From Elusimicrobiota bacterium (lineage in GTDB: Bacteria > Elusimicrobiota > Elusimicrobia > Elusimicrobiales > UBA9959): 33,467 nucleotides of DNA. Position 1 is the stretch's first letter, and each line of letters begins with the position of its first letter. The stretch covers positions 1 to 33,467 of the forward strand of contig DAOWGR010000088.1 of the NCBI GenBank assembly GCA_030637365.1, read 5' to 3'. Of the stretch, positions 640 through 23,508 are shown piece after piece. The notes beneath the pieces were generated by a model. That model was not told the origin of the DNA and made no database searches. It saw only the letters and a program-made list of their open reading frames with translations. Made by a program: the position numbers and the translations under genes.

Positions 640-795
640 AGTACAACCCTTAGGATTGTACTGGTCTCAAGTCACATGTCACCAGTCACAAGTAAAAAAA
701 ATCGTAAACCATGTCGGTTTTGGATGACTGGGATTTCGAAGGTTTACTCGGATATTTTAAAAAACCAATACAACCCGTCGGGTTGTACCGGTTTT
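640..795. repeat. Two related short palindromes (640-662 and 761-795) plus a degenerate heptamer run
   Basis: agtacaacccttaggattgtact and aaaaccaatacaacccgtcgggttgtaccggtttt share the core tacaaccc-NNN-gg(a/g)ttgtac. The run gtcacat/gtcacca/gtcacaa lies at ~671-691. Confidence 0.6.
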
Positions 796-846
796 CTATC
801 AGACTGCCAAATTTTAAAGCGTTAACTAATCTCTTACCCCTCTGCC

Positions 847-1605
847 CTATCCTCTATTTGTTTTCAGTTCTTTATTCAATTTTACGGACATTTCAATGAT
901 ATGCCGCCTGAATTGAGGCTGTTTTTTTTCTATGAGTGGAAGAAGAGTTTTTCTTATCCAATTTCTGGTATATTTCTCATCTTCATTGGTTTTATCTTTT
1001 CTTGAAGAAAGTTTATGGTTTTTTATATAGGCCAATATCTCCCCGCGAGTAATCGCCATAAGCGGCCTTATGGCATAAATCTTTTTAGAGGCTTTTTTCC
1101 ATAGAATTCTTTTTATGGGTATACCAAGCAAACCTTTTGGATTGGTTCCTCTTATTAAATTGAGTAGAACCGTTTCTATATTATCGTCCGAATGATGAGC
1201 GGTCGCTATGATGGAGCAATTCTTTTTTTTCGCCGTTTGAATTAAAAAATCATATCGCGCGAGCCTTGCCGCGTGTTCAAGGCTTGTTTTTTTCTTTTTG
1301 GCCAAAAGGGGAACATCAATTTTTTTACTTATGGTTTCAATATCGTATTGTAGTCCGAGTTTTTTTACAAAAGTTTCGTCCATATCCGCGTTTTTACCGC
1401 GAAGCATATGATTTATATGGCAGATACAAAGATTGATATTTCTTTTTTTTGAATGCTTGGCGAAAAAATCCAGCATCATTATGGAATCCGGTCCGCCCGA
1501 TATCGCGAGTAATATATTGTCGCCTTTTTTTAAAAGCGAATATTTTTTGGAGTTTGAATTTATCTTGTCTAAAATTTTAAGCGTGAGAGACTTGTTGCCG
1601 GCCAT
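847..1605 (-). CDS. tilS: tRNA(Ile)-lysidine synthetase, short form
   Basis: PP-loop AISGGPDS, HINHMLRG, AARLARY, TAHHSDDNIET, IRPL, DKTN..YTRNWIR. Likely start is the ATG at 1605 (MAGNKS), not the ORF-track start at 1701. Confidence 0.92.
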   Translation of the reverse strand: MAGNKSLTLKILDKINSNSKKYSLLKKGDNILLAISGGPDSIMMLDFFAKHSKKRNINLCICHINHMLRGKNADMDETFVKKLGLQYDIETISKKIDVPLLAKKKKTSLEHAARLARYDFLIQTAKKKNCSIIATAHHSDDNIETVLLNLIRGTNPKGLLGIPIKRILWKKASKKIYAIRPLMAITRGEILAYIKNHKLSSRKDKTNEDEKYTRNWIRKTLLPLIEKKQPQFRRHIIEMSVKLNKELKTNRG

Positions 1606-1701
1606 ATTATAATTATACAAATATAGAGAGAGCGTAAAAGCAGAGGTATTTCTGATGCGATATTTAATATAATTTAAAAGCCAATTCAATTGGGGAGTCA
1701 A

Positions 1702-2850
1702 ATGAATATAAAGAATATTAAATTTTCAGCGGAAAAGATAAGAAACAGTTTTATCCCTTTTTTGGTTTTTATCGCTTTAATTCAGAATTTAATTGTTTCA
1801 TGGCAGGTATTTTCCAAAATCCCGCTTTCAGATCCCGCTTCATATCCTGAAATAGCCAAGGCTTCAAAATTTTTTTATGATACCGGCATAAGGGAGCCCG
1901 TTCAGATATACATTGTAAAATTTTTCATGCTTTTTGGCTTAAATGATGTTTTAAGCGTAAGAGTCGCCACCACGGCAATAGTTGTTTTTTTTGGAGTTTT
2001 ATTGGTTAGGCTTGTTTTTAAAAGATATGGTTTCACAGTCGCTATGGTCGCGGGATTTGTTTTCGCGATCAATCCGTTTGTGGGCTATTATGGCGTTCAG
2101 GGCGTAAATAATCTTACAAGCGGATTTTTTCTGATGCTTTTTGTATATTTTCTCACCAAAAAAGAATATATTCGCGGAAATTTAATTTATACGGCCTTGT
2201 TCGCCGCTTTAAGCATGCTGACAAGGCTTGAAAATATATTGATTATTTTTTTAATTTTAGCGTCTTTTGTTTTGATAAATTTTTCAAAAACCAAACTAAG
2301 ATTTTCTCTACTGGTATTTGCTTTCGCGTTTATCGCGGTTTTGCCCTATCCTTTGCATCAGGCTTACAAATATAAAAGTCCCATCCATTCCCATAATCTG
2401 GCGGCCAGATTTTGGGTCAATACCGAAAAAAACGGACCGCAATCCGCTCAGCGGTATAAAGACGGTCCCATGAGCATAAGCGGTTTTTTATTTAGAGGCG
2501 GCGCTTGCGGCGCGGCATTGTCTTTGTGTAAAGGGTATTTTAAAAGCGGTTTTCATTACTTGCCGAGACTTTTGTATTATAAAGTCGCTTTTTTCTTATT
2601 TATTTTTGGCTTTATCGTGATATTGTTAAGAAAAGAATATTTTTTGGCGAGCCTGCTTCCCATAATGATATTGCCGGTGGTTTTCATAGCCGGTATTGAC
2701 CAGATTTCCAAGGGAAGCGGCATAGAGCTCAGATTTTATATTAATGCGCTTTGGTTGTTGGGAATTTACGCGGGGTTTGGCGTGAATACCGCCGCGATGT
2801 ATGCCAAGCAAAAATTTGAAAAGCTTGCGGCAAAAAAACAAATTAATTGA
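1702..2850 (+). CDS. Multi-pass membrane glycosyltransferase, GT-C (ArnT/PMT-like)
   Basis: Many hydrophobic segments, a 'SDPASY...REP' first loop, 'AINP' and 'LTRLE' motifs. ATG 1702 is preceded by GGGGAG. Confidence 0.6.
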   Translation: MNIKNIKFSAEKIRNSFIPFLVFIALIQNLIVSWQVFSKIPLSDPASYPEIAKASKFFYDTGIREPVQIYIVKFFMLFGLNDVLSVRVATTAIVVFFGVLLVRLVFKRYGFTVAMVAGFVFAINPFVGYYGVQGVNNLTSGFFLMLFVYFLTKKEYIRGNLIYTALFAALSMLTRLENILIIFLILASFVLINFSKTKLRFSLLVFAFAFIAVLPYPLHQAYKYKSPIHSHNLAARFWVNTEKNGPQSAQRYKDGPMSISGFLFRGGACGAALSLCKGYFKSGFHYLPRLLYYKVAFFLFIFGFIVILLRKEYFLASLLPIMILPVVFIAGIDQISKGSGIELRFYINALWLLGIYAGFGVNTAAMYAKQKFEKLAAKKQIN

Positions 2851-3912: not shown

Positions 3913-4076
3913 AAGAGCAGAGAGAGGCAAGATTTGTAAGGATATTCCTTGCAAATTTGATTTCTTACCTCTTTTTGTTATTCGTATTATTAGGTCTTGA
4001 TCTCAGTTTATATTGGGTCATAGGTTGCTTGCCAATTAGTGTATTGCTACTAATATATATAAATAGGATAGAGTTT

Positions 4077-6062
4077 ATGCGATATAAATTTTTTCAAAAT
4101 ATTCTGTTTTTTTGTCTTTTTTGCGGATTTTCAAATAACGCGTTTGCCATTAATGATTTGGAGTCCCGGCGAAGTGAAGCCTCCGTGGTTTTTGACGGCG
4201 GCGCGGCGGTTTTTGAAGATTTGTCCGGCTTCAAGTCGGATTTAAAATATTCCCAGCAAAATTATATTTCAGAGCTTCGCCAAGTAATGTCGGCGGGCCG
4301 TTGGAATGGCAGCACTCCCGCTATAAGGCATTTTCAATTTAAACACAGTGAAGAGGGGTGGAACGCGCAAGCTCAAAGTGTCGGTCTCGAAGGGTTTTTT
4401 TGGACAAAAAGGGAGCTTGAAAACAAATACGGCCCAGATAAGTTTATTCATCAGGTTGACGGTTATTTTACATATTTGGAGCATTTGCTTTCTCCCGTTG
4501 CATGGACAAAAGAATTCAGGGAGGACTTGGCCGAGCTTAAAAAGTCCGACCTTAATGTATATGAGAAAAATGACAAATTGAATCTTATTTTGGAGCGTTA
4601 TATTAAAGGGCTTCAGGAAAATATGGAGAAATATGACAGCGCGGGGTGGATTAAAAAAGCGAGGATTTATGAATTGTTTCCGCGCGCTTATAATACCGCC
4701 GGCAGACGAAACGCCGATGGGTTTAAGTCTCCTTCAAATTCCGATAAAACGCTGTTTTTTAAGGATTTCGCCATATCCGATTTTGATGTGATTAAAAGGA
4801 TGGGTTTTGATGTTGTGTGGCCCATGGGCATATTGCCGATAGGGAAAAGAGGACAGACCGGAACGGGCGGCGGTTCGCCTTATTCCATAAGCGATCATTC
4901 CACCGTTAATCCTGATTTGGGCACGGAAGAAGATTTTAAAAATTTTGTTAAAAAAGCGCATATGGCGGGTTTGAAAGTTATAATTGATTTTGTTGTTAAT
5001 CATACATCGCTTGATTCAAAGCTTTTGCATGAAGACCCGGATTATTTTATTAATTTTCGTTATGACGGAGCTTGTCCGAGAGACGGGTATTTTGAGCATT
5101 ATTGTAAAGGGCAAAAATATTGCGTGAATAACGGAGGTTTTGAGTATGGCGGAGGCGTGTCCACTTGGATTGACACCGCTCAGGTAAATTACGGCAATGA
5201 AAAACTCAGAGGCCGAATGACTCAAATACTCAAGGGTTGGGTGTCCAAATTTGATATTGACGGGTTCAGGGTTGATATGGCGCATCTTGATTTGAATAAT
5301 GTTTTTTCGCGAACATGGCAAAAAAGCATGCCGCATGAAGAATTTTACAGGCCGATGATAAGAGAAGTTAAGTCGGCAAAAGCTTCGGTCGCTTTTGTGG
5401 CGGAAGCCTATTCTTTTCAGGAAGATTTGTCGGCTTGCGGTTTTGACGCTATTTACAGCAAATATGAAATGGGCCGGCCCGAGGGCCAAACAGGCTGGTA
5501 TGAAACGAGCGCGAGCGGAAACAGCTATGAGATTGGGAGTTCCATAAACAGAGTGGCGTTTCTCGCGTGGCAAAACGGCGGCGCGGGATCGGTTGTTTTC
5601 GTGGGCAATCATGATGAGCCCGCTCCCGAGACGGTGTACGGCAAGAGGCTTCCGGCCGCTCTTATGATGACTATGCTGATGCCAAGTTCTATAATGGTTT
5701 ATTCGGGCGCTGAGATAGGATATAATGCCGCGATTGCCACGGAACATAAGCCATTGCCTTTTAGCGTGCCCACTGAAATTGATTGGAGCGAGGGCGAAGC
5801 TTGGGTTAAGGAAACTTACCTGAATGTATTTTCAATTTCAAATAAGATAAGAAATGAAATGGGCGATTATGATATTAAACCTCTCTGGCCGAAAGATGGC
5901 GGGCAATGGTCCGGCTATATGATGATATCCAAATCAAAGCCCGATTTGAAAAAAGCCGTTATAGGAAATATAACATGGAATTCCGCCGCGGTTTATCTTC
6001 CGGAATTTCAAATAAATCTGAATCTTGAGCCCGGCGAGTACAAAATAGTGAGCCTTAAGTAG
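4077..6062 (+). CDS. Secreted GH13 alpha-amylase-family glycoside hydrolase
   Basis: Signal peptide MRYKFF...NAFA; GSPYSI, DFVVNHT, GFRVDMAH, AEAY, NHDE. Likely start is ATG 4077. Confidence 0.85.
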   Translation: MRYKFFQNILFFCLFCGFSNNAFAINDLESRRSEASVVFDGGAAVFEDLSGFKSDLKYSQQNYISELRQVMSAGRWNGSTPAIRHFQFKHSEEGWNAQAQSVGLEGFFWTKRELENKYGPDKFIHQVDGYFTYLEHLLSPVAWTKEFREDLAELKKSDLNVYEKNDKLNLILERYIKGLQENMEKYDSAGWIKKARIYELFPRAYNTAGRRNADGFKSPSNSDKTLFFKDFAISDFDVIKRMGFDVVWPMGILPIGKRGQTGTGGGSPYSISDHSTVNPDLGTEEDFKNFVKKAHMAGLKVIIDFVVNHTSLDSKLLHEDPDYFINFRYDGACPRDGYFEHYCKGQKYCVNNGGFEYGGGVSTWIDTAQVNYGNEKLRGRMTQILKGWVSKFDIDGFRVDMAHLDLNNVFSRTWQKSMPHEEFYRPMIREVKSAKASVAFVAEAYSFQEDLSACGFDAIYSKYEMGRPEGQTGWYETSASGNSYEIGSSINRVAFLAWQNGGAGSVVFVGNHDEPAPETVYGKRLPAALMMTMLMPSSIMVYSGAEIGYNAAIATEHKPLPFSVPTEIDWSEGEAWVKETYLNVFSISNKIRNEMGDYDIKPLWPKDGGQWSGYMMISKSKPDLKKAVIGNITWNSAAVYLPEFQINLNLEPGEYKIVSLK

Positions 6063-6151
6063 TTTTATTTGGCGGTATTTGGGGAAAAAGTAATTATTAT
6101 AGTTTTAAAGAAAATTTGCTAATCGCGATACGTGCCGTATTGGAGGTTGTT

Positions 6152-7642
6152 TTGCTTCGTTCAAATCCTCATTTAATAGAAATTAACGCGAGACTTTGGA
6201 TAAATCAGCTTAGGAAGAAATATTCGGAAGATATAACTCTTTCAACTATTCCCGAAGAAGAATTATTGAAAATTAAGCATTTGGGTTTTGACATAATTTG
6301 GCTTATGGGCGTATGGGGGCCAAGTCCCCAATCGGCTGAAATAGCCAAGAAAGAGCCGGAACTTATAAAAATCGCGAAAGAAATTATTCCTGAATTTAGT
6401 CCGGATAAAATAGGAGCGTCTCCTTATTCCATTTTTGAATATAAGCTCAATGAAGATTTGGGTTTTGAATGGGAAATTAAGGCGCTTAAAGAAAGATTAA
6501 ATTCTTTAGGCATTGGTTTGTTTCTTGATTTTGTTTCAAATCATATGGCAAAAGATAATCCTTTTATTAAAGAATGTCCCGAATGTTTTGTAAGCGCGAG
6601 CGCCGAAGATTACGCTGCGCGCCCCGATCAATTTTTTGTTTTTGAGACAAACGGCGAAAAAAAAAATATCGCTTACGGCAGAGACCCCAATTTCCCGCCA
6701 TGGACCGATACGGCTCAGCTTAATTTTTTTAATGCTCGCGCGAGAGAGAAGATGCTTCAATTTTTAATGGATATAGCCGATATGTCCGACGGCGTTCGCT
6801 GCGATATGGTGATGCTGACATTGAATGATATTTATGAAGGGACATGGGGCTGGCTTTTAAATAAAGAGGGGCTTCAAAAACCCGGCAATGAATTTTGGGC
6901 CCAAGCCATAAAAAAAGTTAAGCGGAAATATCCCAAATTTATTTTTATCGCGGAAGTTTATTGGGGGCTTGAATGGCGTTTCCAGAATATGGGTTTTGAT
7001 TATACCTATGATAAAATAATTTATGATCGTTTAAGAAACAGCGACTGTGATAATATCCGAGGGCATTTGAGAGCCGAAAAATTATATCAAAAGCGTTCGG
7101 TCAGATTTATAGACAATCATGATGAAGTGTCTTCAATTAAATCGTTCGGCAGGGAAAAGGCTTTCGCGGCGGCCGTTATAATGTCAACGATTAAAGGGCT
7201 TAGGTTTTATCAGGACGCGCAATTGGACGGAGAGATTGTTAAAGTGCCCGTGCAAGTCCTTGATTATGATTGTCCGGTGGATTTGGGCGCGAGAAAATTT
7301 TACGAGAAACTTCTTAAAATAGTTGATCATCCCGCCTTTCACGGCGGAGAATGGAATTTGCTTGAAGTTAATCGTTCCCATCCGGAAAATAAAAGCAATA
7401 TTAATATTTTAAGCTGGTCGTGGTCGCAGATGAGAACGGTTAAAATTGTAATTGTTAATTATTCCCAGGAGACTTCATCGGGAATAGTAAGAACCAAGAT
7501 TAAATCTTCCGAGGATAATACGGCATTGTTTGAAGAATTGTCCGGCAGATTCATTTCATTTAATTCAAGTGATATACAGGACGGTCTTAAAATGGAAAAT
7601 ATGCCGCCGTATTCGGCCTATATTCTGGATATGGAGTTCTGA
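6152..7642 (+). CDS. Cytoplasmic GH13 alpha-amylase-family protein
   Basis: IWLMGVW, ASPYSI, DFVSNH, GVRCDM, AEVYW, NHDE; no signal peptide. TTG 6152 follows GGAGG. Confidence 0.87.
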   Translation: MLRSNPHLIEINARLWINQLRKKYSEDITLSTIPEEELLKIKHLGFDIIWLMGVWGPSPQSAEIAKKEPELIKIAKEIIPEFSPDKIGASPYSIFEYKLNEDLGFEWEIKALKERLNSLGIGLFLDFVSNHMAKDNPFIKECPECFVSASAEDYAARPDQFFVFETNGEKKNIAYGRDPNFPPWTDTAQLNFFNARAREKMLQFLMDIADMSDGVRCDMVMLTLNDIYEGTWGWLLNKEGLQKPGNEFWAQAIKKVKRKYPKFIFIAEVYWGLEWRFQNMGFDYTYDKIIYDRLRNSDCDNIRGHLRAEKLYQKRSVRFIDNHDEVSSIKSFGREKAFAAAVIMSTIKGLRFYQDAQLDGEIVKVPVQVLDYDCPVDLGARKFYEKLLKIVDHPAFHGGEWNLLEVNRSHPENKSNINILSWSWSQMRTVKIVIVNYSQETSSGIVRTKIKSSEDNTALFEELSGRFISFNSSDIQDGLKMENMPPYSAYILDMEF

Positions 7643-7954: not shown

Positions 7955-8704
7955 TTAGACTTCTCTGGCGAGGGTAAACGCCGCCACTTTGCGCGCCCCG
8001 GCTTTTTTTAGCGTTTTCGCGAGTTCCTCAAGCGTGTTTCCCGTTGTGGCGACATCATCAATCAATATTATATTTTTTCCTTTTATGAGTTTTGGTTTCA
8101 AAGCGCTGAACGCTCCGGAAATATTGGTTTTTCTGGCCTCTTTATTTAAGGTTGCTTGAGGTTTGGTGTTTTTGACGCGGATAACGGCGTCTTTTATAAC
8201 TTCAAAATCTTTTTTTTCGGCTATGATATCGGCCAATAAGTCGCTTTGATTAAAACCTCTTTGAGCCAATTTTTTTCGCGCGAGCGGCACAGGCAATAAA
8301 AAACTGAAATCTTTAAATTCGGAATTTGTTTTTAATGTTTCTCTCATCCATAAGCCGAGTGTTTTTGAGAGATAAGGCTTGCAATTATATTTATATTCAT
8401 GAATAGCGGAACGCATGGGTTCATTGAAAATAAAGGCCGATCTTATAAAAGAGCATTTCGGCTTTATTTTCAGCTTTTTGCAGGGATAACAATGCATCTC
8501 TGAATCTATGGGTTTGCCGCATTTGGCGCAGAAAAAGCCGCTTATTTGTTTTAGCTGCCGGAGGCAAGCCAGGCATAAAATATTTTCATTTAAATGATGA
8601 ATATCATTTTTGCAATGCAGGCATATTCTGGGAAAAAGAATGTTTATGAAGAATTTCAAAAAATTTGAATGAAACACTTTGTTTGTAATTTTTTTTATAT
8701 TCAT
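7955..8704 (-). CDS. comF: ComF family protein (zinc ribbon + phosphoribosyltransferase-like domain)
   Basis: CxxC motifs, PVPL...RGFNQS, IILIDDVATTGNTL. Likely start is ATG 8704. Confidence 0.9.
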   Translation of the reverse strand: MNIKKITNKVFHSNFLKFFINILFPRICLHCKNDIHHLNENILCLACLRQLKQISGFFCAKCGKPIDSEMHCYPCKKLKIKPKCSFIRSAFIFNEPMRSAIHEYKYNCKPYLSKTLGLWMRETLKTNSEFKDFSFLLPVPLARKKLAQRGFNQSDLLADIIAEKKDFEVIKDAVIRVKNTKPQATLNKEARKTNISGAFSALKPKLIKGKNIILIDDVATTGNTLEELAKTLKKAGARKVAAFTLAREV

Positions 8705-8752
8705 CGCGCTTGTTTGCAATGCTGTTTCGTATTTATTCTATTTCTTGCTTCT

Positions 8753-8811
8753 CCCGCCACTAAAGCCCTCCACTGCGGCTTTGGCGGGTCCGCCGAAGAA
8801 GTAATGGCGGA
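8753..8811. repeat. Tandem GC-rich REP-like palindromes
   Basis: cccgcca...tggcggg is followed by tccgccgaagaagtaatggcgga. The latter is a 20/21 reverse-complement match to 15530-15550. Confidence 0.65.
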
Positions 8812-8827
8812 GATTTTTGTTTCTTAA

Positions 8828-11800
8828 TTAGAATTGAAATGTGACTGAGCTTCCGATTTGATATGAAAAATATTCCTCTTGTTTAAGGTGTTTATGCCAT
8901 AGTCTTTGAACAGAGGCGTTTAACGCGATTCTAAGATTTTTTGTGGCTTCATAATCGCTGTTTGTATTTAAAGAAAATAATCTTGAATTTTCGGCTATGG
9001 TGATGGGGGATTTTTTGATGGCATAGCTTAATGTGGTGGTCCAAACTATTCTATTGGTAAAAGCCACAATATTTTTCATAAAAGGCAATCTGAGCCCTTT
9101 GGGAATTTTAAAGTCCGAACGCATAAGCAAGCTTGGCGTTAAGGACATGCTGTCTTGAGTGGCGACTCCCAATCCGCTTTCGGTAAAATCCGAAGTATAA
9201 TCCACTTTAGGCGTAAATCTGAATTTGTTTATATCAAATGTTCCCTGAATGGTGGCGTCATTATGTCTGGTATTGCTTACTTTTTGGTTTATGCGCAGAT
9301 CTTTTTTTTCGGAAAGCCGCAAATTATAGCTTATGGCCGCGTCTAAAAAGTCGAAAAATTTAAATCTTAAATCCGTTCCGTAACTGGAGCTTTGTTCAAT
9401 ATCCACCGCTATGTTTTCTTTCGTGTTTTTTGAAAATTTAAAATTTAATGTCGCGTTTTTTGCCCATTTTTCCGTTTTTGTCAGTATTTCAAGCTTGCTC
9501 ATGGAAAACAATATGTCCGGAAAAGTTCTGCTTATGGTTTTGCTTTTGGTTTGGGTTATTTCGGAGCGCTGCACGGTATTTGTAAAATTATTGGTCAAAG
9601 ATATGGTTGAAAAAGGCGCGTATCGCCCTTTTAAGTTATAACCTTCAAACGGCTGCCATCTCTGTGTTGAATTATAAGTGTCTCTTACGGTCAGAGAGTT
9701 TTGCTGAGCTACTGAATTTTCAGGTTTCAGGTCGCGCCTTATCCAGAGATCCTTTTTGGAGTTGTAGCTTTTTTCCACATAGTCCCATGAATCTCCGTCT
9801 TGCAATTGATAATTGGAGGAAATTACCATGGACCTCAAAAGCCTGTTTCGCGGCATTAATTTATTCATATTGAGCGATAGGCTTAGAGCTCCTTGAGAGG
9901 TTCTTCTTATTGTTTTAATTTCACCGGTATCAAATGTGGTGGATGATTGAAGAACGGTTACCGTGGTTACGGACAGATTATTGTTTTCCATCGTGTTAAT
10001 GGAATAATTAAGGCTGGGATTCAGCCAATCAAAAAATCTAAAATTTGAATTAAACCCTGCTGTTTGCTGAAGAGATTTGGGATATTTTAAAGAATTCGCG
10101 GTATTTGATAAATTGAAACGGTCTTCTTTTACTTTTTTTAAATCGTAAGAGGGATTAAATGAAGATCCTTTCCACGGAATAAATGTAAGTTTCGCGCCGT
10201 AATTTCGGCTCACTTCATCAGTATTATAAAGATTTGACAAATCACTTAATTTAGCCGCGTTGTAATTTACTTGGGTTTCATTGATGCCGTAGTTTAAAAC
10301 AACGGTTCTTGGAATTATAAAAAAGTTGAAAGGCGCGCTATAGTTTAAACTGCCGGAATAGGCGTTGTTTTCATCATGCCTTTTAGCCAGATCATATTCC
10401 GTTTTATTTCGCGAATAATTGAGGCCTATTTGCGGAAGTTTGCCAAAGTTGAAATTGCCGCTCGCCGATGTGTTCTGTTTTTTCACCTTTCCCTGCTGAA
10501 GTGAATTAACAAGGTTGTTATTTCCCGTTATAAGTGTATTGGGGGTATCTGTTATTTGATTTGAAACATTTACATTTATCGGGAAAAAACGAAGTTTGGT
10601 AAAGTTTAAATAGCCCGTATTAAGTTCATTATCCTGATTTGAAATGGCTGAAACCGGAGTCTGGAAATTTTTATCCACAAGCCTGTGTTTTCCGCCGAAA
10701 CTCATCCATCCGGGAATATCAAAATTTCCTTCAATTTTTTTCGCGGTTCCCGTTTTTTTCAAAGGTACAGCCAAGTGTATTTCATTAATATAAACCGTTC
10801 CGCTGTAAGTATTTGAATCCGCCGTTTCAATACCCACGGATATCATTGGCACCTGTTGGAGGCTTAAGAGCCCTTTGGATGATACGCTTATATCATAATT
10901 TGATTCGTTTTCGCTCCAAACATCGGGTATATTGTCGCCGTTTATATCTTCCTGCTTAAGCGTAATAAGCCGCCAGCCAGTGAAAGAGTTTAAAGATACG
11001 GAAACCTTTTGATAATTATTATCATCTCCGAGTTTAAGATAAAAATTCGTGTTGGAGGTCGCGCTGCTGTATAAAAGAAACTTAAATTCCTCGTGTTGGG
11101 CGATATTAATCGCTCTGGCGTATTTTCGGTAAACATAAACGGTTGATGAGGAGGATATATTTGAATAATTGAATGAAAGAGACTGTTCTATCAGATTTTC
11201 GGAATTTGTTTCTTTTTGCTGCTTGGCCGCCGAGCCGTAAAGGTCGTTGTAAACAGCGGTGGCGTCTCCTCCCGCGTCATATATGGGCGTATAGCCCGGA
11301 TTATCAACATTGTTTACGGCCAAAACTTCCATAGTTCCGCTATGCGTGCTTTGGCTTATGTTCCAGGTATTGCCCACGACTGATATTCTGGCTATTTTAA
11401 TTGTGCCGGTGGAAGTTCCGCCGGGCGTTTGTTTTAATGATATTCGGATTTGTTTTATGGCATTCCATTTGTATGTGTCGCTTGATGTTATATGGAGAGA
11501 TGTGTAAAGAGTATGCCAGCCGCTAAAATCTATATTGTTTTTTGTATTTAGACTGTCATCATTGTCTATAAAAAGCGAACTGTTGACATAACCGAAGTCT
11601 CCGCCGGTATAATCTTGGGGATCCAGGCGGCCGTTCCTGTTTAAGTCCGCGGAATCCAGGCGGCCGTTATCTTCGCCATAGCGCTTCCAATGGTCATCGT
11701 GCGGCTTGTAAAGCCAGCCTATATCTTCATCATTTGAAAGTTGTCCGTCGCAATTTAAATCTTCGCTTTTGGGCGCGCCGTGAATATCTATTCCGTTTGA

Positions 11801-14206
11801 ACAGTTAAAAGACTGTCCGCTTTTTCCGTCCGCGTCTTCGCTGATTTGGCCGAGATGAAAATTTATTTGAGGGCCGGGAATTCCAATTGAGTTTTCTCCG
11901 TAAGCTACAAATTCAAAAGTGTTTTTTTGAGAAAAATCAAGGCCCGTATTGGAAAAAGGATACACTATTGATATTTCCGGCGATATGTTGAAATCATAAT
12001 TAACGGTCAATACCTGCTGGTCTCCCTCGCTTGTTGACGCGGAATTTATTGTTTTGGATTTAATATCTTCGCTTGCCCACGCTAAAGCCGAGGGATACGC
12101 GGGATTTTCCGTCGGGTTTGCGGCTATATGCCAGAAATTATGGTCCAAAGAAGGAGTGTCGTCCTGTTTAACGCCTTCCATATTGTCTATAAGAGCGAAA
12201 TCATTCAGATTGGGTTTGACTATTGATTGGGCGGCTTCCGCCTGTAAATTGGCTTTGATGCCGAGCAGATTCAGATTTTTCAGCTGCGCGTCCCCTTCAT
12301 AAACAAGCATGCTGTTTGTTAAATCGGTTATGTTCGGCACGGTATTTGTTTTCATGCCGCCCTGATACAGCAGAGAACTGCCGAATGATAAATGGGAGCT
12401 TAAATCATAAGAAACTCTTCCGCCGATAAGTGAAAGACTGCCTGCGCCTCCGAAAGGAGCGACTTCATAAGTAATGGTAATGGCGCTGTCCGATTTTATT
12501 TTGTCGGGATGATAAAAAGTTATGAATCCCGAATCATAATCTATAAAATAAGATTCATTGCGCCTGAGTTTTACTTTGTCAATTGTCACGAAATCCGAAT
12601 GGGTGACAATATTGGGCTCAAGCATAAATGTTTTAAAACGATGATAATATTCCACTCTTATCAGGCGTTTTGACACGGGCGAAGGCGCGTAAATCTGCGT
12701 GTCGGGCTCGGTGGAATTATCAAGCGTGAATTGTTTGTCAAGATAAAATATGCCTTGTTCAAAATCCACATGAATGGTTTCGGGGTAAGTTTGTTGGGGC
12801 GATAAGCCGCTTCCCACATTATTCCTGGTTAAGTCCTGAACTTTTAATGAAAAACTGCCTCTGCCGTCGTCGCGGACAATATTCATCTGCCCTATGGAAT
12901 AATAGGTTTTTAACTCTCTTTGCCAGCCAGTCTCCGAATTGTTGTTTATGTAAATATCGTTTTGCGTTTTTATAAGTTTGAAATTTCCGCTTCCGCCCGA
13001 GCCGGTATTCGCCGATGACGGATTTTCCGAAAGTTTGAATCCGCTTGAATTTTTAAAATCAATGATTATCACTTCCTGCGAATCTAAAGCTCTGTTAAAA
13101 GTCAGTATGCCTTTGATATAGTCGATATTATAATCCAAGCCGGGATTTAATCGTTCAAATTTGCCGGTATAGGTGGAAGTCTGGACATCAAGGTCATCGG
13201 CTGTCATATTAAAAATCGTTATGCCGTCGGCGACGGCTTGCTGTTGCTTGTCTATATAAATTGCTTCGCTGTTTGGCTCCAAAGGAAGGCGCGCCGGATT
13301 TCCGAAAGTTAAATCATAATATTTTCTTCTCAGATAGCTTATATCGGAAATGTCCGTGGCTTGAAATTGCGTATTGCCCGTGAATTGTTTTGTTTTTGTC
13401 TGGCCTTTCGTGCGGCTGCCTATGAAAGTAAAACTGAATTTTTTGGTTTTTAAATCCGCTCTTATTCCAAAGAGCTGCTTATTATACGATACGAATTCGG
13501 TTGAGGGCAGAGACAGGTTAATATCGCCGAAAGCGATGTTTTGCACCACTTCTTGGGGGTCTCCTCTATATACCACGGAAATATCCTGTCTGTCTTCTTT
13601 TGTGTCGTCATAGTCCACATTCACATTTATTTTATTTCCGACTTTGCCCTGCATGCGCACCTGAAGCTGTTGATTGATTTCAAAAAGGCCGGATGATTTC
13701 GGGCGGGTAACGGTTTTTTGCTCATTTAAATATTTTTTTCCGGAATAATTGAAGCTTATTATTTTTCTTCCGGTAACCGATAAAGAGGTTCCATAAGATG
13801 TAAATTCCACTTCCGGCGCGGGAAGCGCGGGAATATTTGTTGAGATCGCCACATAAATCGGCGCCGGCGCAATAGCTTTTTCAAATTGTCCGGTTTCAAT
13901 TTTTTCACGGACTTTATTCCATGAGCTTGGAGAATAATTTGAAATCGGCAATTCTTCAAAAATTATTTCAGGGTCGGCTTGAGGAGTCGTGGATTTTTTT
14001 ATTTCAGTTTTTAAAATGGCGGCCGAATCCGGCCTTTCAAGAAGCATGAATCTTGAAGACGGCTCCGGCGTTGGAGCTATGTAATCTTCGCTTTGGCCGT
14101 CTGATGGACATAGCCCATTGTTACGGCATCCGACATAGTCTTGAGAATACGCTCGCGCGCTTGCGAGGTTCAATAATATTAAAAATATATATATCAATTT
14201 ATACAT
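8828..14206 (-). CDS. Giant outer-membrane beta-barrel protein, SprA/Sov (T9SS translocon)-like
   Basis: Signal peptide. The segment QQLQVRMQGKVGNKINVNVDYD...VVQNIAFGDINLSLP...QLFGIRADL resembles the SprA N-terminal region as I recall it. Also DxNxxG loops, a long amphipathic beta-strand C-terminal half, and a terminal Phe (VTFQF). Likely start is ATG 14206. Confidence 0.72.
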   Translation of the reverse strand: MYKLIYIFLILLNLASARAYSQDYVGCRNNGLCPSDGQSEDYIAPTPEPSSRFMLLERPDSAAILKTEIKKSTTPQADPEIIFEELPISNYSPSSWNKVREKIETGQFEKAIAPAPIYVAISTNIPALPAPEVEFTSYGTSLSVTGRKIISFNYSGKKYLNEQKTVTRPKSSGLFEINQQLQVRMQGKVGNKINVNVDYDDTKEDRQDISVVYRGDPQEVVQNIAFGDINLSLPSTEFVSYNKQLFGIRADLKTKKFSFTFIGSRTKGQTKTKQFTGNTQFQATDISDISYLRRKYYDLTFGNPARLPLEPNSEAIYIDKQQQAVADGITIFNMTADDLDVQTSTYTGKFERLNPGLDYNIDYIKGILTFNRALDSQEVIIIDFKNSSGFKLSENPSSANTGSGGSGNFKLIKTQNDIYINNNSETGWQRELKTYYSIGQMNIVRDDGRGSFSLKVQDLTRNNVGSGLSPQQTYPETIHVDFEQGIFYLDKQFTLDNSTEPDTQIYAPSPVSKRLIRVEYYHRFKTFMLEPNIVTHSDFVTIDKVKLRRNESYFIDYDSGFITFYHPDKIKSDSAITITYEVAPFGGAGSLSLIGGRVSYDLSSHLSFGSSLLYQGGMKTNTVPNITDLTNSMLVYEGDAQLKNLNLLGIKANLQAEAAQSIVKPNLNDFALIDNMEGVKQDDTPSLDHNFWHIAANPTENPAYPSALAWASEDIKSKTINSASTSEGDQQVLTVNYDFNISPEISIVYPFSNTGLDFSQKNTFEFVAYGENSIGIPGPQINFHLGQISEDADGKSGQSFNCSNGIDIHGAPKSEDLNCDGQLSNDEDIGWLYKPHDDHWKRYGEDNGRLDSADLNRNGRLDPQDYTGGDFGYVNSSLFIDNDDSLNTKNNIDFSGWHTLYTSLHITSSDTYKWNAIKQIRISLKQTPGGTSTGTIKIARISVVGNTWNISQSTHSGTMEVLAVNNVDNPGYTPIYDAGGDATAVYNDLYGSAAKQQKETNSENLIEQSLSFNYSNISSSSTVYVYRKYARAINIAQHEEFKFLLYSSATSNTNFYLKLGDDNNYQKVSVSLNSFTGWRLITLKQEDINGDNIPDVWSENESNYDISVSSKGLLSLQQVPMISVGIETADSNTYSGTVYINEIHLAVPLKKTGTAKKIEGNFDIPGWMSFGGKHRLVDKNFQTPVSAISNQDNELNTGYLNFTKLRFFPINVNVSNQITDTPNTLITGNNNLVNSLQQGKVKKQNTSASGNFNFGKLPQIGLNYSRNKTEYDLAKRHDENNAYSGSLNYSAPFNFFIIPRTVVLNYGINETQVNYNAAKLSDLSNLYNTDEVSRNYGAKLTFIPWKGSSFNPSYDLKKVKEDRFNLSNTANSLKYPKSLQQTAGFNSNFRFFDWLNPSLNYSINTMENNNLSVTTVTVLQSSTTFDTGEIKTIRRTSQGALSLSLNMNKLMPRNRLLRSMVISSNYQLQDGDSWDYVEKSYNSKKDLWIRRDLKPENSVAQQNSLTVRDTYNSTQRWQPFEGYNLKGRYAPFSTISLTNNFTNTVQRSEITQTKSKTISRTFPDILFSMSKLEILTKTEKWAKNATLNFKFSKNTKENIAVDIEQSSSYGTDLRFKFFDFLDAAISYNLRLSEKKDLRINQKVSNTRHNDATIQGTFDINKFRFTPKVDYTSDFTESGLGVATQDSMSLTPSLLMRSDFKIPKGLRLPFMKNIVAFTNRIVWTTTLSYAIKKSPITIAENSRLFSLNTNSDYEATKNLRIALNASVQRLWHKHLKQEEYFSYQIGSSVTFQF

Positions 14207-14264
14207 TAATTTATATTTAACAGACCCATCATTCAATAATCCAATATATGATAGAATAATTTAA

Positions 14265-15380
14265 ATGCGAATTCCTATCTTTCAGAGGTATATTTTAAAG
14301 GTTTTCATTCCTTTTTTTCTGCTTTCAACCTTTCTTTTTACCGCTTTGTTCATGATGGTTAACTTTATGCAGATTATTCATCGCGGCATATTAAGCGGTT
14401 TTTCATTTTATTTTCTTTTTAAAACGCTTGTTTTTCTCATTCCAAATATTTTCTCCATGGTGCTGCCGCTGGCGTTTTTAATGGCCACTTTGCTGAGTTT
14501 GGGGCAATTATCCGGCGATGGGGAAATTATGGCCATGCGCGCGGGAGGGTATTCATTTAAAGAAATTTTGACATCTCTTTTAGCGAGTTCTCTTGTTGTC
14601 GTTTTTTTGCTTGTTTTTATAACTAATTGGTTCGGACCGCTATCTCTCAAAAAATCCAATGATTATGTTCTGGCGATGGTAAATAAAATCACCAAATTGG
14701 AGCTGCGCGCCCAAACATTTCAGAAAATATCGGATTGGGAGATATATTCGGACGAGGTTGATAATAAGGCGCAAAAGCTTTTAAATGTTAAATTATCCAG
14801 AACATTTAAAAAATCCGATAATAATTCTTTATGGTTGTTAAAAATTGACGCGAAAGAAGGCAGTTATAGGATTATTAAAGAAAAGGGCTTATTGATGAAA
14901 TTTGGAAACGGCAGGTTTAATCAGGTTGATTTTAAGAATAATGAAACGCTGGTGCACGGAACTTTTAAAGCCTATGAAACGCTTATTCCTTTTTTTTCAA
15001 AAAGCACTTTGAACAGAAAACTTTATCCAAAAGAAATGCAAAGTTTTGAGCTTCTTGATAAGATTAAAGCCAATGCCTTAAGTCAAAGCATGCTTATGAA
15101 ATACAAGGTTGATTTTATCACAAGATTCACAATGGTTTTGTCTCCCGTCATATTTTTTTTAATAGGCGCGCCTCTGGGGCTTTTGCTTGAAAAAAAAGGG
15201 AAGGCGATGGGTTTTTCTTTAACTTTATTGATAATTTTCATTTATTACGGCATTAGCGTAATATCCATGGCGCTCGCGAAAAAACACGGAATATTTTTTC
15301 CTTGGATATTATATGTTCCTCCTATTTTGGGTTTCGCGGCGGGAGCTTATATTTGGAGGGCGAAGCTGTATTTAAAGTAG
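14265..15380 (+). CDS. lptF: LPS export ABC transporter permease, LptF/LptG family (LptF position)
   Basis: IFQRYI start, LPLAFLMATLLSLGQLSGDGEIMAMRAGG, periplasmic beta-rich region, three C-terminal TMs. Confidence 0.82.
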   Translation: MRIPIFQRYILKVFIPFFLLSTFLFTALFMMVNFMQIIHRGILSGFSFYFLFKTLVFLIPNIFSMVLPLAFLMATLLSLGQLSGDGEIMAMRAGGYSFKEILTSLLASSLVVVFLLVFITNWFGPLSLKKSNDYVLAMVNKITKLELRAQTFQKISDWEIYSDEVDNKAQKLLNVKLSRTFKKSDNNSLWLLKIDAKEGSYRIIKEKGLLMKFGNGRFNQVDFKNNETLVHGTFKAYETLIPFFSKSTLNRKLYPKEMQSFELLDKIKANALSQSMLMKYKVDFITRFTMVLSPVIFFLIGAPLGLLLEKKGKAMGFSLTLLIIFIYYGISVISMALAKKHGIFFPWILYVPPILGFAAGAYIWRAKLYLK

Positions 15381-15382
15381 CC

Positions 15383-15613
15383 GCAGAGCGGAGCTCTGCT
15401 TAAAGAAGCAAGAGGCACCCTTAGGAATCTGGTCGTTCACATAGTTTGCGACACTTGATGAAGCATAGCTTCCATGTTCCGAAAGATTCCAAGGCTATGC
15501 CAGGTGCCGTGACGCGGACTATGTCCATCCCGCCATTACTGCTTCGGCGGGCAAGGCAGACGGGGCCGAGGCTATGCTCCACGGGACCATGGGCTTGTCC
15601 CGTGGTCTCATGG
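15383..15613 (+). other. GC-rich, highly structured spacer between lptF and lptG (candidate cis-acting RNA or composite palindromic element)
   Basis: Multiple stems, several mutually exclusive, with G-U pairs favouring the plus strand (see findings). Confidence 0.5.
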
Positions 15614-15650
15614 TAAACTCTGAACTTTAAACTGATATTGATAGGAGAAT

Positions 15651-16736
15651 ATGAGCAAAATTTTTCCAAAATATATAGCGGCGTCTTTTTTTGGGCCTTT
15701 TTTCTTCGGCCTTGGAATATTTACCGCTTTGATTTTTTTTGGCACGCTTTTTGATAAATTGAACATATTCATGCGCGCGGGATCAAACTTAAGTTTATTT
15801 GTGAAATATCTTTTATGCCAATTGCCATATTACGCGGCGCAGGTTATTCCCATGGCAACGCTTTTGGCTGTTTTATTCGCGCTTGGAGACTTTATCAAAA
15901 GGGGAGAATGGAAGGCCGGGCAAGCCGGCGGGTACAGGCCGCTAACCATGATAATGCCGCTTTTGCTTTGTTCTTTGATAGTGGCTGTTTTTCATTTCGC
16001 GCTTATAGAATTTGTTTCTCCCGTTTTATACATGAAATCCCAAAGGATTTATCATTCAGAGTTAAAGGGAAAAAAAGACTGGGGAAATATGGCGCGCAAA
16101 AATGTGTCTTTTTTTGCCGGTGAAGGAACTTTTATTTCAGCCAATGTTTTTAACGGTAAAACCCGGAGTATGGAAAAAGCTGTGGTTGATATTTATAAAG
16201 ACGGAGAGATGTCTGTTGAAATATCGGCGAAAAGAGCGTATTGGGACAAAGAAAGCGCGAGGTGGATATTTTTAAACGGAGCGCTTACAAAATATGATGA
16301 TGACAGGCCTTTGACCAAAAGCTTTGATGTGTATAAATCGGAATTTTTAATTCATCCTGAAAAACTGGTTTTCAAGGAGCTTGTAGCGGATGGAATTTCA
16401 ATAAGAAAACTTTTAAATAGAATTGATAAACTGCGCTTTATCGGTTCCAGTATTATAGCTGAAAAAACTCTTCTTTATTATAAGCTGGCTTTTACTCTTT
16501 CAAATTTTGTCATGGCCATGATAGGCATTGTGGTTATACTTTTCTTTAACAGAGTAAATAATATGTTCAATATCGGTATTGCCATTTCGTTGGGATTTCT
16601 TTTATGGGCTTTTATGACAATTTCTTCATCAGCCGGAGTGTCTGAAGTTCTTTCGCCGGTTTGGGCCGGGTTCGGGCCGCTTGTGTTGTTTTTTCTGATA
16701 GCTCTGTTCGGAATGAGAAAAGCGAAAATAATATAA
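15651..16736 (+). CDS. lptG: LPS export ABC transporter permease, LptF/LptG family (LptG position)
   Basis: PMATLLAVLFALGDFIKRGEWKA, ISAKRAYWD...WIFLNG, C-terminal TMs. AGGAGA precedes the ATG. Confidence 0.82.
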   Translation: MSKIFPKYIAASFFGPFFFGLGIFTALIFFGTLFDKLNIFMRAGSNLSLFVKYLLCQLPYYAAQVIPMATLLAVLFALGDFIKRGEWKAGQAGGYRPLTMIMPLLLCSLIVAVFHFALIEFVSPVLYMKSQRIYHSELKGKKDWGNMARKNVSFFAGEGTFISANVFNGKTRSMEKAVVDIYKDGEMSVEISAKRAYWDKESARWIFLNGALTKYDDDRPLTKSFDVYKSEFLIHPEKLVFKELVADGISIRKLLNRIDKLRFIGSSIIAEKTLLYYKLAFTLSNFVMAMIGIVVILFFNRVNNMFNIGIAISLGFLLWAFMTISSSAGVSEVLSPVWAGFGPLVLFFLIALFGMRKAKII

Positions 16737-18122: not shown

Positions 18123-18962
18123 ATGGCAAATGTTAAAGACATATTTATAAGAATATTGAAAATATTTAGTAGCGCCATCGGCAAATTCTTAAAAATTAAC
18201 GGTTCTCAAAGAGCCGCGGCTTTCGCTTACGCGGCATTCTTTTCTTTTTTTCCATTGATGATTATTCTTGTTACCTTGGCGTCGGTTTTTATTGATCATA
18301 ATATGGCTGCCAACGCGATTATTGAATATATTAAAAAATATATTCCGCTCAGCGGTTCAATGCAGAGTTATATTTTTAGCGCTATGGCGGGCGTGGTCAA
18401 AATTCGCATTCAGGCCGGTTCGCTCATGTTTATTATGTTGGTTTGGATTTCCATACAATTTTTTATTACTTTAATATCAGCGGCTAATCAGGCTTGGGGG
18501 ATTAAGCATCATAATTGGTGGCATAGTCCGTTAAAAAGCGTAATTCTTTTCGGTTTTATGGCGGGAGCTATGTTTTTGGGCATGGCTTTGCCCATGCTAA
18601 TGCGTATGATTAAGGTTTGGCTTTTTCCAACGAGCACATTTATTTCTTGGGTATATCCCGTGGGATTATTTTTTATTCCGTGGCTGATAATGTTCTTAGG
18701 GCTTGGTTTTTTTTATAAGTTCGCGCCGAGGCGGCGCACGAGTATTCAAGAGGTATGGGCCGGAGCTTTGATTTCCACAATCTTTTTGCAAGCGGGGGGG
18801 AATTTGTTTGTATTGTATCTTAAGAATTTTTCTTCGCTGAATGTGGTTTATGGCGCGTTTGGCGGCATAATGGCCCTGCTGTTATGGATTCATCTTTCCG
18901 GGTGTATTATTATTTTTGGAGCTTGTTTCTGCGCCGCGCGGGCGCAAATTAACAATACTTAA
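18123..18962 (+). CDS. YihY/virulence factor BrkB family membrane protein
   Basis: AAAFAYAAFFSFFPL, YKFAP, VYGAFGGIMALLLWI. Confidence 0.88.
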   Translation: MANVKDIFIRILKIFSSAIGKFLKINGSQRAAAFAYAAFFSFFPLMIILVTLASVFIDHNMAANAIIEYIKKYIPLSGSMQSYIFSAMAGVVKIRIQAGSLMFIMLVWISIQFFITLISAANQAWGIKHHNWWHSPLKSVILFGFMAGAMFLGMALPMLMRMIKVWLFPTSTFISWVYPVGLFFIPWLIMFLGLGFFYKFAPRRRTSIQEVWAGALISTIFLQAGGNLFVLYLKNFSSLNVVYGAFGGIMALLLWIHLSGCIIIFGACFCAARAQINNT

Positions 18963-20095
18963 GATTTACGCCTGTCGGAGCGCTCGCGCGTAGCGGGGCG
19001 CGCCACTCCGTTTTCATCAAAAATATGCAGTTTGTCAATGGCAAAAACCAATTTAATCCGGTCGCCGGTTTTAATGGGGAAGTCATGCCTTTGATTGGAT
19101 TGAAACTCAAGTCCTTGAGCTTTGCAATGAAGGGACACATCATTGCCCATGGATTCCGCGAGCTCAATTTCACAATCAATAGCCTCGCTACACAACATGT
19201 CGTTAGGCTTTCTTTCAGCTAAATATATATGTTCGGGCCTTATCCCCAAAGTATAATCGGAACTTTCATCGCTTAAAATATCGGGAAATTTCAAAGGAAG
19301 CGTAAGTGCCGTATTGTTTATCTTAAAAAACAATTGGTCATCCTTTTTTATAATATCGCCCTTAAAAAGATTCATCGGCGGGCTTCCGATAAAAGTGGCT
19401 ACGAATACATTTTTCGGCGAAGAATAAATTTCAGACGGCGCGCCGCATTGCTGAATAATACCGTTGTGAAGCACCACCATTCTGTCGGCCATGGTCATGG
19501 CTTCGCATTGGTCATGAGTTACATAGATTATCGTAGTTTTCAGTTTTTTGTGAAGTTTTGATATTTCAACCCTCATTTGGGTTCTCATTTTGGCGTCCAA
19601 GTTTGACAAGGGTTCGTCAAATAAAAAAACTTTCGGTCTTCTGACTATCGCTCTTCCGACGGCTACGCGCTGTCTTTGTCCGCCGCTTAAATTCTTAGGT
19701 GTTTTGCGCAGAAAATCTTTAATGCCCAGAAGTTCAGCGGCATCATTCACGCGTTTGTCAATTTCTTTTTTATCCGTTTTTCTTATGCTTAAGCCAAAGC
19801 TGATATTTTCATAGACATCCAAATGCGGAAACAGGGCATAGTTTTGAAAAACCATTGAGATGCTTCTGTCTTTCGGCGGAAGGTTTGTGATGTCTTTACC
19901 GTCAATAAACATTTTGCCGCTTGTCGTATTTATCAAGCCCGCGATCATTCTTAGGAGAGTTGATTTGCCGCAGCCGGACGGGCCTACAAAGACCATAAAT
20001 TCACCGGCATTGATTGAAAGATCCAAATCCTTAATTGTGGATTTATCATTATTGGGATAATGTTTTACCACATTTTCTAAAATAACACTTGCCAT
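18959..20095 (-). CDS. Carbohydrate ABC transporter ATPase (MalK/UgpC type)
   Basis: GPSGCGKST, LSGGQRQR, FDEPLSNLD, YVTHDQ, C-terminal TOBE-like region. ATG 20095 has an AGGAGA RBS. Confidence 0.95.
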   Translation of the reverse strand: MASVILENVVKHYPNNDKSTIKDLDLSINAGEFMVFVGPSGCGKSTLLRMIAGLINTTSGKMFIDGKDITNLPPKDRSISMVFQNYALFPHLDVYENISFGLSIRKTDKKEIDKRVNDAAELLGIKDFLRKTPKNLSGGQRQRVAVGRAIVRRPKVFLFDEPLSNLDAKMRTQMRVEISKLHKKLKTTIIYVTHDQCEAMTMADRMVVLHNGIIQQCGAPSEIYSSPKNVFVATFIGSPPMNLFKGDIIKKDDQLFFKINNTALTLPLKFPDILSDESSDYTLGIRPEHIYLAERKPNDMLCSEAIDCEIELAESMGNDVSLHCKAQGLEFQSNQRHDFPIKTGDRIKLVFAIDKLHIFDENGVARPATRERSDRRKS

Positions 20096-20193
20096 ATCAG
20101 TTCTCCTAAATACGCAAAATACTCGCAAAACGCGCTGATAAATATATTCCTGAATTTGCGAACAAAGGTGACATATAATTCCTTCTAATCTTG

Positions 20194-20293
20194 CATCTTA
20201 TTTACATATCTACGCCGTTTATCTTCTGTCCGTATTAACTTATCATCTTATTTACATATCTACGCTGTTTATCTTTTGTCCATATCAACTTAT
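20194..20293. repeat. Two-copy 50-bp tandem direct repeat
   Basis: 20194-20243 and 20244-20293 (catcttatttacatatctacgc...aacttat) differ at 4 positions. Confidence 0.9.
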
Positions 20294-20310
20294 AAACTTG
20301 CTTTTATCTT

Positions 20311-23451: not shown

Positions 23452-23508
23452 TCTTAGTATAGTATAATAAATCTCTATTATATATAAAGCGTTTCGGAGG
23501 AAATTTGA

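Follow-up and report, generated by a model that had tools for sequence, protein, structure and literature searches.

The closest described relatives of the system considered here are the type 9 secretion systems (T9SSs), in which the outer-membrane pore SprA (Sov) is a 36-strand barrel with a lateral opening, and the PorU sortase cleaves the C-terminal domain (CTD) of cargo proteins and links them to lipopolysaccharide (LPS). The present analysis concerns a giant gene, designated sprA-like, in a 33,467-nucleotide stretch of DNA from an Elusimicrobiota bacterium; this whole stretch, referred to below as the window, is contig C178 of a 1.5-Mb, 192-contig assembly that is 79% complete. The results are best explained if the product of this gene is the SprA/Sov ortholog of Elusimicrobiota, a capped outer-membrane beta-barrel of giant size, and its assignment to the SprA superfamily of translocons is made with high confidence. 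Its most probable function is that of the translocon in a reduced, type-9-like secretion pathway.

In the F. johnsoniae (Flavobacterium) system, according to the available text of PMC10994853, cargo enters the pore from the periplasm, its CTD binds loops of a carrier protein through the lateral opening, and release of the carrier-cargo pair is an energy-requiring step driven by GldLM. A genome survey (Abby et al. 2016, PMC4793230) reports T9SS only in Bacteroidetes, in 60 of the 97 genomes of that group, and abstracts of other work likewise confine type 9 secretion to Bacteroidota or to the Fibrobacterota-Chlorobiota-Bacteroidota (FCB) superphylum. A full-text search whose coverage left subscription journals outside found no literature linking Elusimicrobia with SprA or T9SS and none on linkage of sprA to lptFG; the terms "Elusimicrobia" and "T9SS" co-occurred only in unrelated passages. 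Here, a whole phylum outside Bacteroidota/FCB keeps the pore (142 of 151 genomes), carriers and tagged cargo, with motor, ring and sortase undetected. The Elusimicrobiota pathway would thereby provide a minimal system of natural origin in which to ask what the motor is needed for, and the findings offer a route to annotating giant proteins of this phylum, hundreds of which are labeled "hypothetical", and the cargo that goes with them.

Relationship of the giant protein to SprA

An earlier note, made from the letters of the window alone, had described a protein of about 1790 residues with a signal peptide, an SprA-like N-terminal signature, a beta-strand-rich C-terminal half and a terminal Phe, and each of these features is borne out. 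The longest open reading frame (ORF) in the window (8828..14236, minus strand) opens with TTG, and an in-frame ATG at 14206 gives a protein of 1792 residues. Because a same-genus homologue (N-terminus MHKLIYIF) begins almost identically, this ATG is taken as the likely start on the basis of sequence comparison. From it the protein begins MYKLIYIFLILLNLASARAYSQ, with a basic residue and a hydrophobic run followed by ARA/YSQ, a start that looks like a signal peptide when read by eye; the AlphaFold model has an N-terminal helix over residues 2-20, and hydrophobic N-termini of this kind recur in the homologues. At its other end the protein reads ...VTFQF, and a terminal Phe is present in 20 of 20 homologues fetched across the phylum (21 of 21 with the protein itself). 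The named homologues, at 47-61% identity, are proteins from metagenome-assembled genomes (MAGs) of Elusimicrobia/Elusimicrobiota, in agreement with the earlier impression that the genome does not look like Bacteroidota.

The NCBIfam model for Sov/SprA, TIGR04189, matches the giant protein at E 2.6e-30 and 104.5 bits, aligning residues 142-309 with model positions 89-256, and the family alignment places the family's most conserved block (VNVDYDD...FGDI.LSLP) inside this signature. A genome-level search with the same model recovered two stretches at 82.4 and 37.4 bits. The profile check proposed in the earlier note thus came out in part: TIGR04189 was matched at the E-value given, with a score under the curated cut-off of 200 bits, and the Pfam scan of the giant protein at E 0.01 reported no family, SprA_N included. 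When the single giant protein was compared with PDB sequences using phmmer, no match was obtained at E 1; a profile of 20 homologues had as its sole match F. johnsoniae SprA (6h3i, 6h3j; E 1.1e-18). Four stretches of the profile are collinear with SprA, namely 153-282 with SprA 160-290, 525-604 with 701-780, 883-1066 with 1211-1403, and 1081-1191 with 1456-1567.

A phmmer search with the first 1190 residues against 1.84 billion cluster representatives returned 1080 matches at E 0.001 or better, which grade from proteins of about 1750 residues to proteins of 1900-2500 residues. Eleven of the 24 scanned with TIGR04189 exceed its cut-off, reaching up to 530 bits, and a continuum of intermediates is present. 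Feature matches in the ESM Atlas are to clusters that are unnamed or bear SprA_N. One SprA-like protein of 2486 residues (P0252) has an N-terminal stretch that matches the T9SS PorG model at E 2e-11, under its cut-off.

AlphaFold2 was run on two halves of 1200 residues each, the C-terminal half with a 21-sequence alignment. The C-terminal model has a mean predicted local distance difference test score (pLDDT) of 81.4 and a predicted template-modelling score (pTM) of 0.49, and the N-terminal model has corresponding values of 72.0 and 0.48. In the C-terminal model the last ~660 residues form 28 consecutive strands of 10-19 residues each, with pLDDT mostly 85-95, and the half-length models contain more long strands at residues 140-254, in the SprA_N signature, and 592-664. 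Judged from these half-models, the predicted strand content would fit a barrel of SprA's size.

Comparison of both models with the PDB using Foldseek placed SprA chains in the top four positions. For the C-terminal model these matches have E 7e-41 to 1e-33 and query TM-scores (TMq) of 0.54-0.57, followed by the next match at 8e-6; for the N-terminal model they have E 5e-48 to 1e-34 and TMq 0.38-0.42, followed by the next at 3e-8. VIA-align likewise ranked SprA first (Z 16.8-17.6 over 826-1015 residues), aligning model residues 1 to 1162-1194 with SprA 757..2401. The structure prediction called for in the earlier note therefore gives an SprA fold in both halves. The barrel half also resembles TonB-dependent transporters, porins and LptD weakly (E ~1e-5, Z ~13-14, at most 430 residues), which is put down to the likeness of barrels in general.

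In comparison with SprA/Sov as represented by F. johnsoniae SprA (PDB 6h3i, 8gl8; TIGR04189), the protein is alike in being a giant secreted outer-membrane protein with a collinear four-stretch match, the same fold in both halves and a C-terminal Phe, and in having PorV-family carriers and CTD-tagged proteins encoded in the same genome. It differs in being ~600 residues shorter (1792 versus 2403), in being only ~12-15% identical in structural alignments, in scoring 104.5 against a cut-off of 200 bits, in the absence of detectable GldKLMN or PorU, and in belonging to a phylum outside Bacteroidota/FCB.

Carriers, cargo and the search for a motor

The description of the gene as an orphan in the earlier note does not hold, since the same genome has ten PorV-like ORFs and seven CTD proteins over cut-off, often as adjacent pairs. 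The genome-wide check that the note had suggested for porV, for cargo with CTD or FlgD_ig tails and for lptD found all of these, the PorV-like and LptD-like proteins being diverged. The T9SS sorting-domain model TIGR04183 has eight matches in the source genome, seven of them over cut-off, and matched none of 14 control genomes. PF18962 or FlgD_ig is found by Pfam at the extreme C-termini of the matching ORFs, among which are a PQQ-propeller protein, a lectin-like protein, an NHL-repeat protein and others; those that are complete have signal-peptide-like starts and similar basic-hydrophobic tails.

The PorV model NF033710 has nine matches in the source genome (E down to 1e-18, 18-66 bits, all below the 250-bit cut-off), and PF19572 scores 27-32 bits on the PorV-like ORFs against a cut-off of 27. 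A hidden Markov model built from five PorV-like proteins of this genome recognizes ten PorV-like ORFs in it, and the profile, compared with the PDB, matches PorV of the SprA complex (6h3i_F) at E 8.4e-25, the next match being TodX at 0.04. For five of the ten, the ORF immediately upstream, in the same orientation, encodes a protein with a CTD or FlgD_ig tail (C113, C114, C154, C172, C34), and two further ones have lost their upstream side at a contig end. One PorV-like protein of 584 residues (C49:14016-15770, L040) has a TPR repeat fused at its C-terminus, which is unusual in a carrier barrel.

This arrangement resembles that of Flavobacterium type-B CTD cargo and PorP/SprF-like carriers, for which the available text of PMC9143113 and PMC12618676 describes a cargo gene followed by its own FadL-like carrier gene, with many such pairs per genome. 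Relative to what those sources describe, the cargo tails here are recognized by the type-A model (TIGR04183/PF18962) or as FlgD_ig, PorV rather than PorP/SprF is the best-scoring family for the carriers, and there is no gliding machinery.

Across 151 Elusimicrobiota genomes, 139 of them of high quality, a single-copy SprA-like gene is found in 142 (132 of the 139). The nine genomes in which it is missing measure 0.6-2.2 Mb, seven of them at most 1.4 Mb, and eight belong to one family. CTDs over the TIGR04183 cut-off occur in 104 of the 151 genomes, with at least 35 in the richest, and PorV-like proteins in 106, many of them encoded right beside a CTD gene. None of the nine SprA-less genomes has a PorV-like gene, which ties the pore to the carrier, and only one has a CTD (a single match). 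As a sign of linked function this co-absence, read from gene content in relatives that are not independent, is suggestive only.

The genome-wide check for gldKLMN gave no match over cut-off for GldL, GldM or GldN, and the GldK model found only FGE-sulfatase genes. Neither the GldM nor the GldL model matches in the source genome. Among the 151 genomes, GldM has no match; PF12081, the first domain of GldM, is never over cut-off and has six matches at E 0.001-0.01 (best 18.7 bits); GldL is never over cut-off and has one match at 24.7 bits; and GldN has none. Because the built-in control genomes gave no match, a Bacteroidales MAG was used as a positive control, and the same searches found adjacent GldL, GldM and GldN in it at 222, 282 and 210 bits. 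GldK and PorU were searched for in the source genome, at its 79% completeness. The GldK-like candidates, which score 69-73 bits where the cut-off is 350, are two plain FGE-sulfatase genes in unrelated contexts and were rejected, as were the PorU (NF033707) matches, which cover only the CTD part (model positions 986-1094) and fall on cargo ORFs.

Taken together, the confirmed SprA homology and fold and the failure to find GldL, GldM or GldN in 151 genomes favor what the earlier note had put forward as a simplified or ancestral T9SS-like export system. An exporter of this type that lacks the known motor, consisting of pore, carriers and tagged cargo, is considered reasonably probable. By analogy with F. 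johnsoniae, Sec-exported proteins ending in a CTD would enter the barrel from the periplasm, the CTD would bind loops of a PorV-like carrier barrel that reach in via the lateral opening of the pore, and the carrier-cargo pair would exit sideways into the outer membrane, leaving the cargo at the cell surface on its carrier. There the cargo would be expected to stay, as in the case of type-B CTDs with PorP/SprF-like carriers, because each cargo tends to have its own adjacent carrier and no sortase was found. The pathway would run without the GldLM/PorLM proton motor, the GldKN ring and the PorU sortase, and release from the pore might be spontaneous, driven by folding, or mediated by an unrecognized stator. 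Concerted action of the parts, the energy for release from the pore and the carrier-bound state of the cargo are points that we only infer.

Several observations weigh against this reading. The source genome is only 79% complete, the TIGR04189 score of the giant protein is about half the curated equivalog cut-off, the PorV-like proteins score at most 115 bits against a curated cut-off of 250, and the structural models cover halves only (pTM 0.48-0.49). Motor homologues that have diverged strongly could escape the models, which derive from Bacteroidota. In family f2 the pore is present in 44 of 45 genomes, with a CTD in 8 and NF033710 matches, all weak, in 14; in genus g9 the SprA-like gene is present in 30 of 30 genomes and a TIGR04183 CTD in none, so that the pore is retained where recognizable cargo is not. 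Furthermore, if the F. johnsoniae mechanism is a guide, a motor-less version is without known means of completing transport.

With regard to family f2, the phylum's own PorV profile finds one or two PorV-like genes (E 1e-34 to 1e-44) in each of five genomes chosen. A minimal set of pore, carrier and large protein seems to persist in this family, given that the PorV-like gene is present in five of five genomes and is paired with a FlgD_ig protein in the two inspected. At these two loci of the CTD-poor, gut-type family (L081:4337-9518 and L082:4292-10089), the PorV-like gene lies 3' of a gene for a 1397- or 1605-residue protein with internal FlgD_ig domains, and it adjoins Tad-pilus genes (TadE, RcpC, secretin).

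A hidden motor is the first alternative to be weighed, in which a canonical motor-driven T9SS operates with components too divergent for the models, or another stator driven by the proton-motive force takes their place. SprA and PorV are themselves far below curated cut-offs and therefore other parts could be equally diverged, and the mechanism described in the available text of PMC10994853 requires energy for release. A GldM match is also lacking in all 19 SprA-bearing non-Bacteroidales FCB genomes searched (from G156 and G158-G179), which span Calditrichota, Cloacimonadota, WOR-3, Gemmatimonadota, Eisenbacteria, Zixibacteria, Marinimicrobia, Ignavibacteriaceae and Edwardsbacteria, and GldL and GldN were not found in the four FCB candidate-phylum genomes tested for them, whereas the Bacteroidales control has all three. 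Either the motor or the models may thus be confined to Bacteroidia, and Elusimicrobiota are not alone in lacking a motor or in being a group to which the models are blind. However, in 151 genomes no match over cut-off came from either of two independent models for GldM, from the one for GldL or from the one for GldN, the best matches (24.7 bits for GldL, 18.7 bits for PF12081) are at noise level, and the neighborhood of the sprA-like gene contains no conserved gene of unknown kind, comF and lptFG alone recurring in more than 7 of 21 loci. A hidden motor is accordingly regarded as unlikely.

Gene order around the sprA-like gene

Neighborhoods were counted at 20 diverse Elusimicrobiota loci. A comF gene lies within ~320 bp downstream of the sprA-like gene on the same strand in 17 of them and 4 kb off in one more, and the ends of the two genes overlap or nearly touch in several. 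The lptF/G genes stand beside the sprA-like gene in 15 of the 20 loci, co-oriented upstream in one of these and divergent in the others, and are 3 kb off in one more. The comF-sprA-lptFG synteny that the earlier note wished to see tested in relatives is therefore conserved within the phylum. In clustering of the ORFs the next genes to recur are gap and pgk, in 7 loci. In distant lineages the sprA-like protein is as conserved as LptFG (29-36% versus 21-32% identity). In 6 of the 20 loci (L054, L056, L057, L058, L062, L064) lptG is adjoined by a gene for an M6-type peptidase of ~550 residues with a CTD-like or FlgD_ig tail, which is likely to be cargo encoded next to its pore.

Outside the phylum, SprA-like proteins recovered among the cluster representatives were used, as a 3-sequence alignment, to scan for further loci, and 80 were obtained (L083-L162) from records of Gemmatimonadota, Eisenbacteria, Edwardsbacteria, WOR-3, Stahlbacteria, Zixibacteria, Calditrichota, Cloacimonadota, Marinimicrobia, Ignavibacteria and Bacteroidales. 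Divergent lptF/G genes are located 152-2284 bp upstream of sprA in 23 of the 57 loci in which the upstream sequence extends for 5 kb or more, and comF is near sprA in none of the 80. In tblastn comparisons the best partners outside the phylum are lptFG-linked loci of Gemmatimonadota and unclassified MAGs (E 4e-62 to 7e-64); those of Eisenbacteria and Edwardsbacteria follow at ~1e-50, and a Bacteroidales locus scores 7e-8. The SprA-like proteins of the FCB candidate phyla (Gemmatimonadota, Eisenbacteria, Edwardsbacteria, Calditrichota, Cloacimonadota, WOR-3) resemble the window protein in size (~1700-2000 residues), in the shared divergent lptF/G and in the absence of GldM. They are 21-30% identical to it, lack comF downstream and, unlike it, in many cases exceed the TIGR04189 cut-off (210-530 bits).

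The link to lptFG, which the earlier note had read as possible co-regulation from a shared divergent promoter, stands as a conserved adjacency, and its presence in FCB loci as well makes it much older than was supposed. One explanation would be that envelope or LPS biogenesis together with LptFG is the main job of the pore, CTD secretion being secondary or separate. The adjacency in both groups of loci (15 of 20, one co-oriented, and 23 of 57), the fact that the adjoining lptF and lptG are the only copies in the genome, the near-universal, single-copy occurrence of the sprA-like gene with conservation equal to that of lptFG, and its retention in genus g9 without recognizable CTD cargo are all consistent with such a role. 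Nevertheless, the non-envelope housekeeping genes gap and pgk are also kept nearby in 7 of the 20 loci, and thus ancestral gene order alone may explain the adjacency; the lack of PorV-like genes in all nine SprA-less genomes ties the pore to the carrier; and a separate LptD-like protein exists in 13 of 13 genomes of the family. On this evidence an envelope role as the main function is quite unlikely.

LptD itself is a large outer-membrane barrel, LptDE is among the weak Foldseek matches of the C-terminal model (E 1e-5 to 1e-3), and the sprA-like gene adjoins lptFG; but Pfam finds no LptD match in the giant protein, and its SprA match is better by ~35 orders of magnitude. The Pfam LptD model PF04453 was seen in only 10 of the 151 genomes. 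A profile from three PF04453-matching ORFs detects an LptD-like gene of ~700 residues in the 13 family genomes, the source genome included, where the ORF (C88:3586-5715, L165) encodes 709 residues with an LptC/OstA-type N-terminal domain (PF06835, 27 bits) and no other match. Since this separate gene exists, the proposal that the pore substitutes for LptD was rejected. The LptD of the phylum has diverged so far that PF04453 misses most genomes.

A broader proposal is that the divergent lptFG-sprA pair is an ancient functional unit of Elusimicrobiota and the FCB phyla. The ancestral SprA machine would have been a motor-less housekeeping exporter that placed carrier-bound surface proteins into the outer membrane in step with LPS delivery, and GldKLMN and PorU would be later additions in Bacteroidia for gliding and LPS anchoring. 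This proposal is tentative and, at present, rather unlikely; if it were true, release from the SprA pore would be possible without a trans-envelope motor, and T9SS-type secretion would be far older and wider than its textbook range. The linkage to lptFG across phyla is in any event a new clue to the origin of the machine.

The neighboring comF gene had suggested a further alternative, the uptake of DNA or other macromolecules by the pore acting with ComF. It is in favor of this alternative that 17 of the 20 Elusimicrobiota loci have comF close behind in the same orientation and that no terminator-like site was found on the minus strand between the two genes in the window. The macromolecule uptake proposed in the earlier note nonetheless finds no support beyond the comF adjacency, which is limited to Elusimicrobiota and does not occur in any of the 80 FCB loci. 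ComF-family proteins act at the cytoplasmic membrane, other competence genes were not found in the window by Pfam and NCBIfam scans, and the pore fold, the carriers and the cargo tags all point outward. An uptake function is therefore highly improbable, and export of carrier-bound, CTD-tagged proteins is retained as the preferred reading.

Features of the window

The coordinates of the sprA-like gene, its parts and its immediate neighbors are collected in the table. The spacing to the divergent lptF start and the position of the gene directly upstream of a co-oriented comF are as first reported, comF lying 108 bp downstream of the sprA-like gene, and Pfam and NCBIfam scans agree with the earlier note in finding no further T9SS gene in the window.

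Table. Location and assignment of features at the sprA-like locus (window coordinates)
Feature	Position	Strand	Assignment or basis
comF-family gene	7955..8719	(-)	DZR_2 (double zinc ribbon) + PRTase, TIGR00201
sprA-like gene	8828..14206	(-)	1792-residue secreted giant outer-membrane protein, distant SprA/Sov superfamily member (predicted)
Consecutive long beta-strands (barrel wall), C-terminal ~660 residues, ending beta-signal-like ...TFQF	8831..10807	(-)	AlphaFold model
Second SprA-model stretch	12329..12613	(-)	TIGR04189 positions 603-697, E 2.1e-10; collinear with profile 525-604 versus SprA 701-780
Conserved SprA N-terminal signature	13310..13813	(-)	TIGR04189 positions 89-256; aligns to F. 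johnsoniae SprA 160-290
Signal-peptide-like N-terminus, first ~22 residues (...ASARA/YSQ)	14141..14206	(-)	Read by eye
Divergent AT-rich intergenic region, sprA-like/lptF	14207..14264	.	58 bp, sequence read directly
lptF, LPS export permease	14265..15380	(+)	PF03739 E 1e-60; TIGR04407 E 7e-45, under cut-off
lptG, LPS export permease	15651..16736	(+)	PF03739 E 9e-60; TIGR04408 E 2e-44, under cut-off

The gap between lptF and lptG is 270 bp in the window (15381-15650), whereas the two genes almost touch in most other loci of the phylum. The remaining genes of the window serve sugar use and housekeeping. A sugar-use cluster flanks the locus on both sides (3957-7642 and 18959-24495) and comprises two alpha-amylase-family genes, a MalK/UgpC-type ATPase, two ATP-binding cassette (ABC) permeases, a solute-binding protein and a GH130 phosphorylase. 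Farther along, at 28534-31553 and 32434-33180, are ORFs of 250, 422 and 260 residues without a Pfam match at E 1e-5; the gene that follows them encodes a CsgG-like lipoprotein, and elsewhere in the genome (C143) another CsgG-like domain occurs as a fusion with a PorV-like ORF. Between 63 and 90% of the words sampled from positions 7955-16736 occur in contigs of four cold-seep runs from one study, possibly the source of the assembly, and 5-28% occur in other cold-seep and marine-sediment runs.

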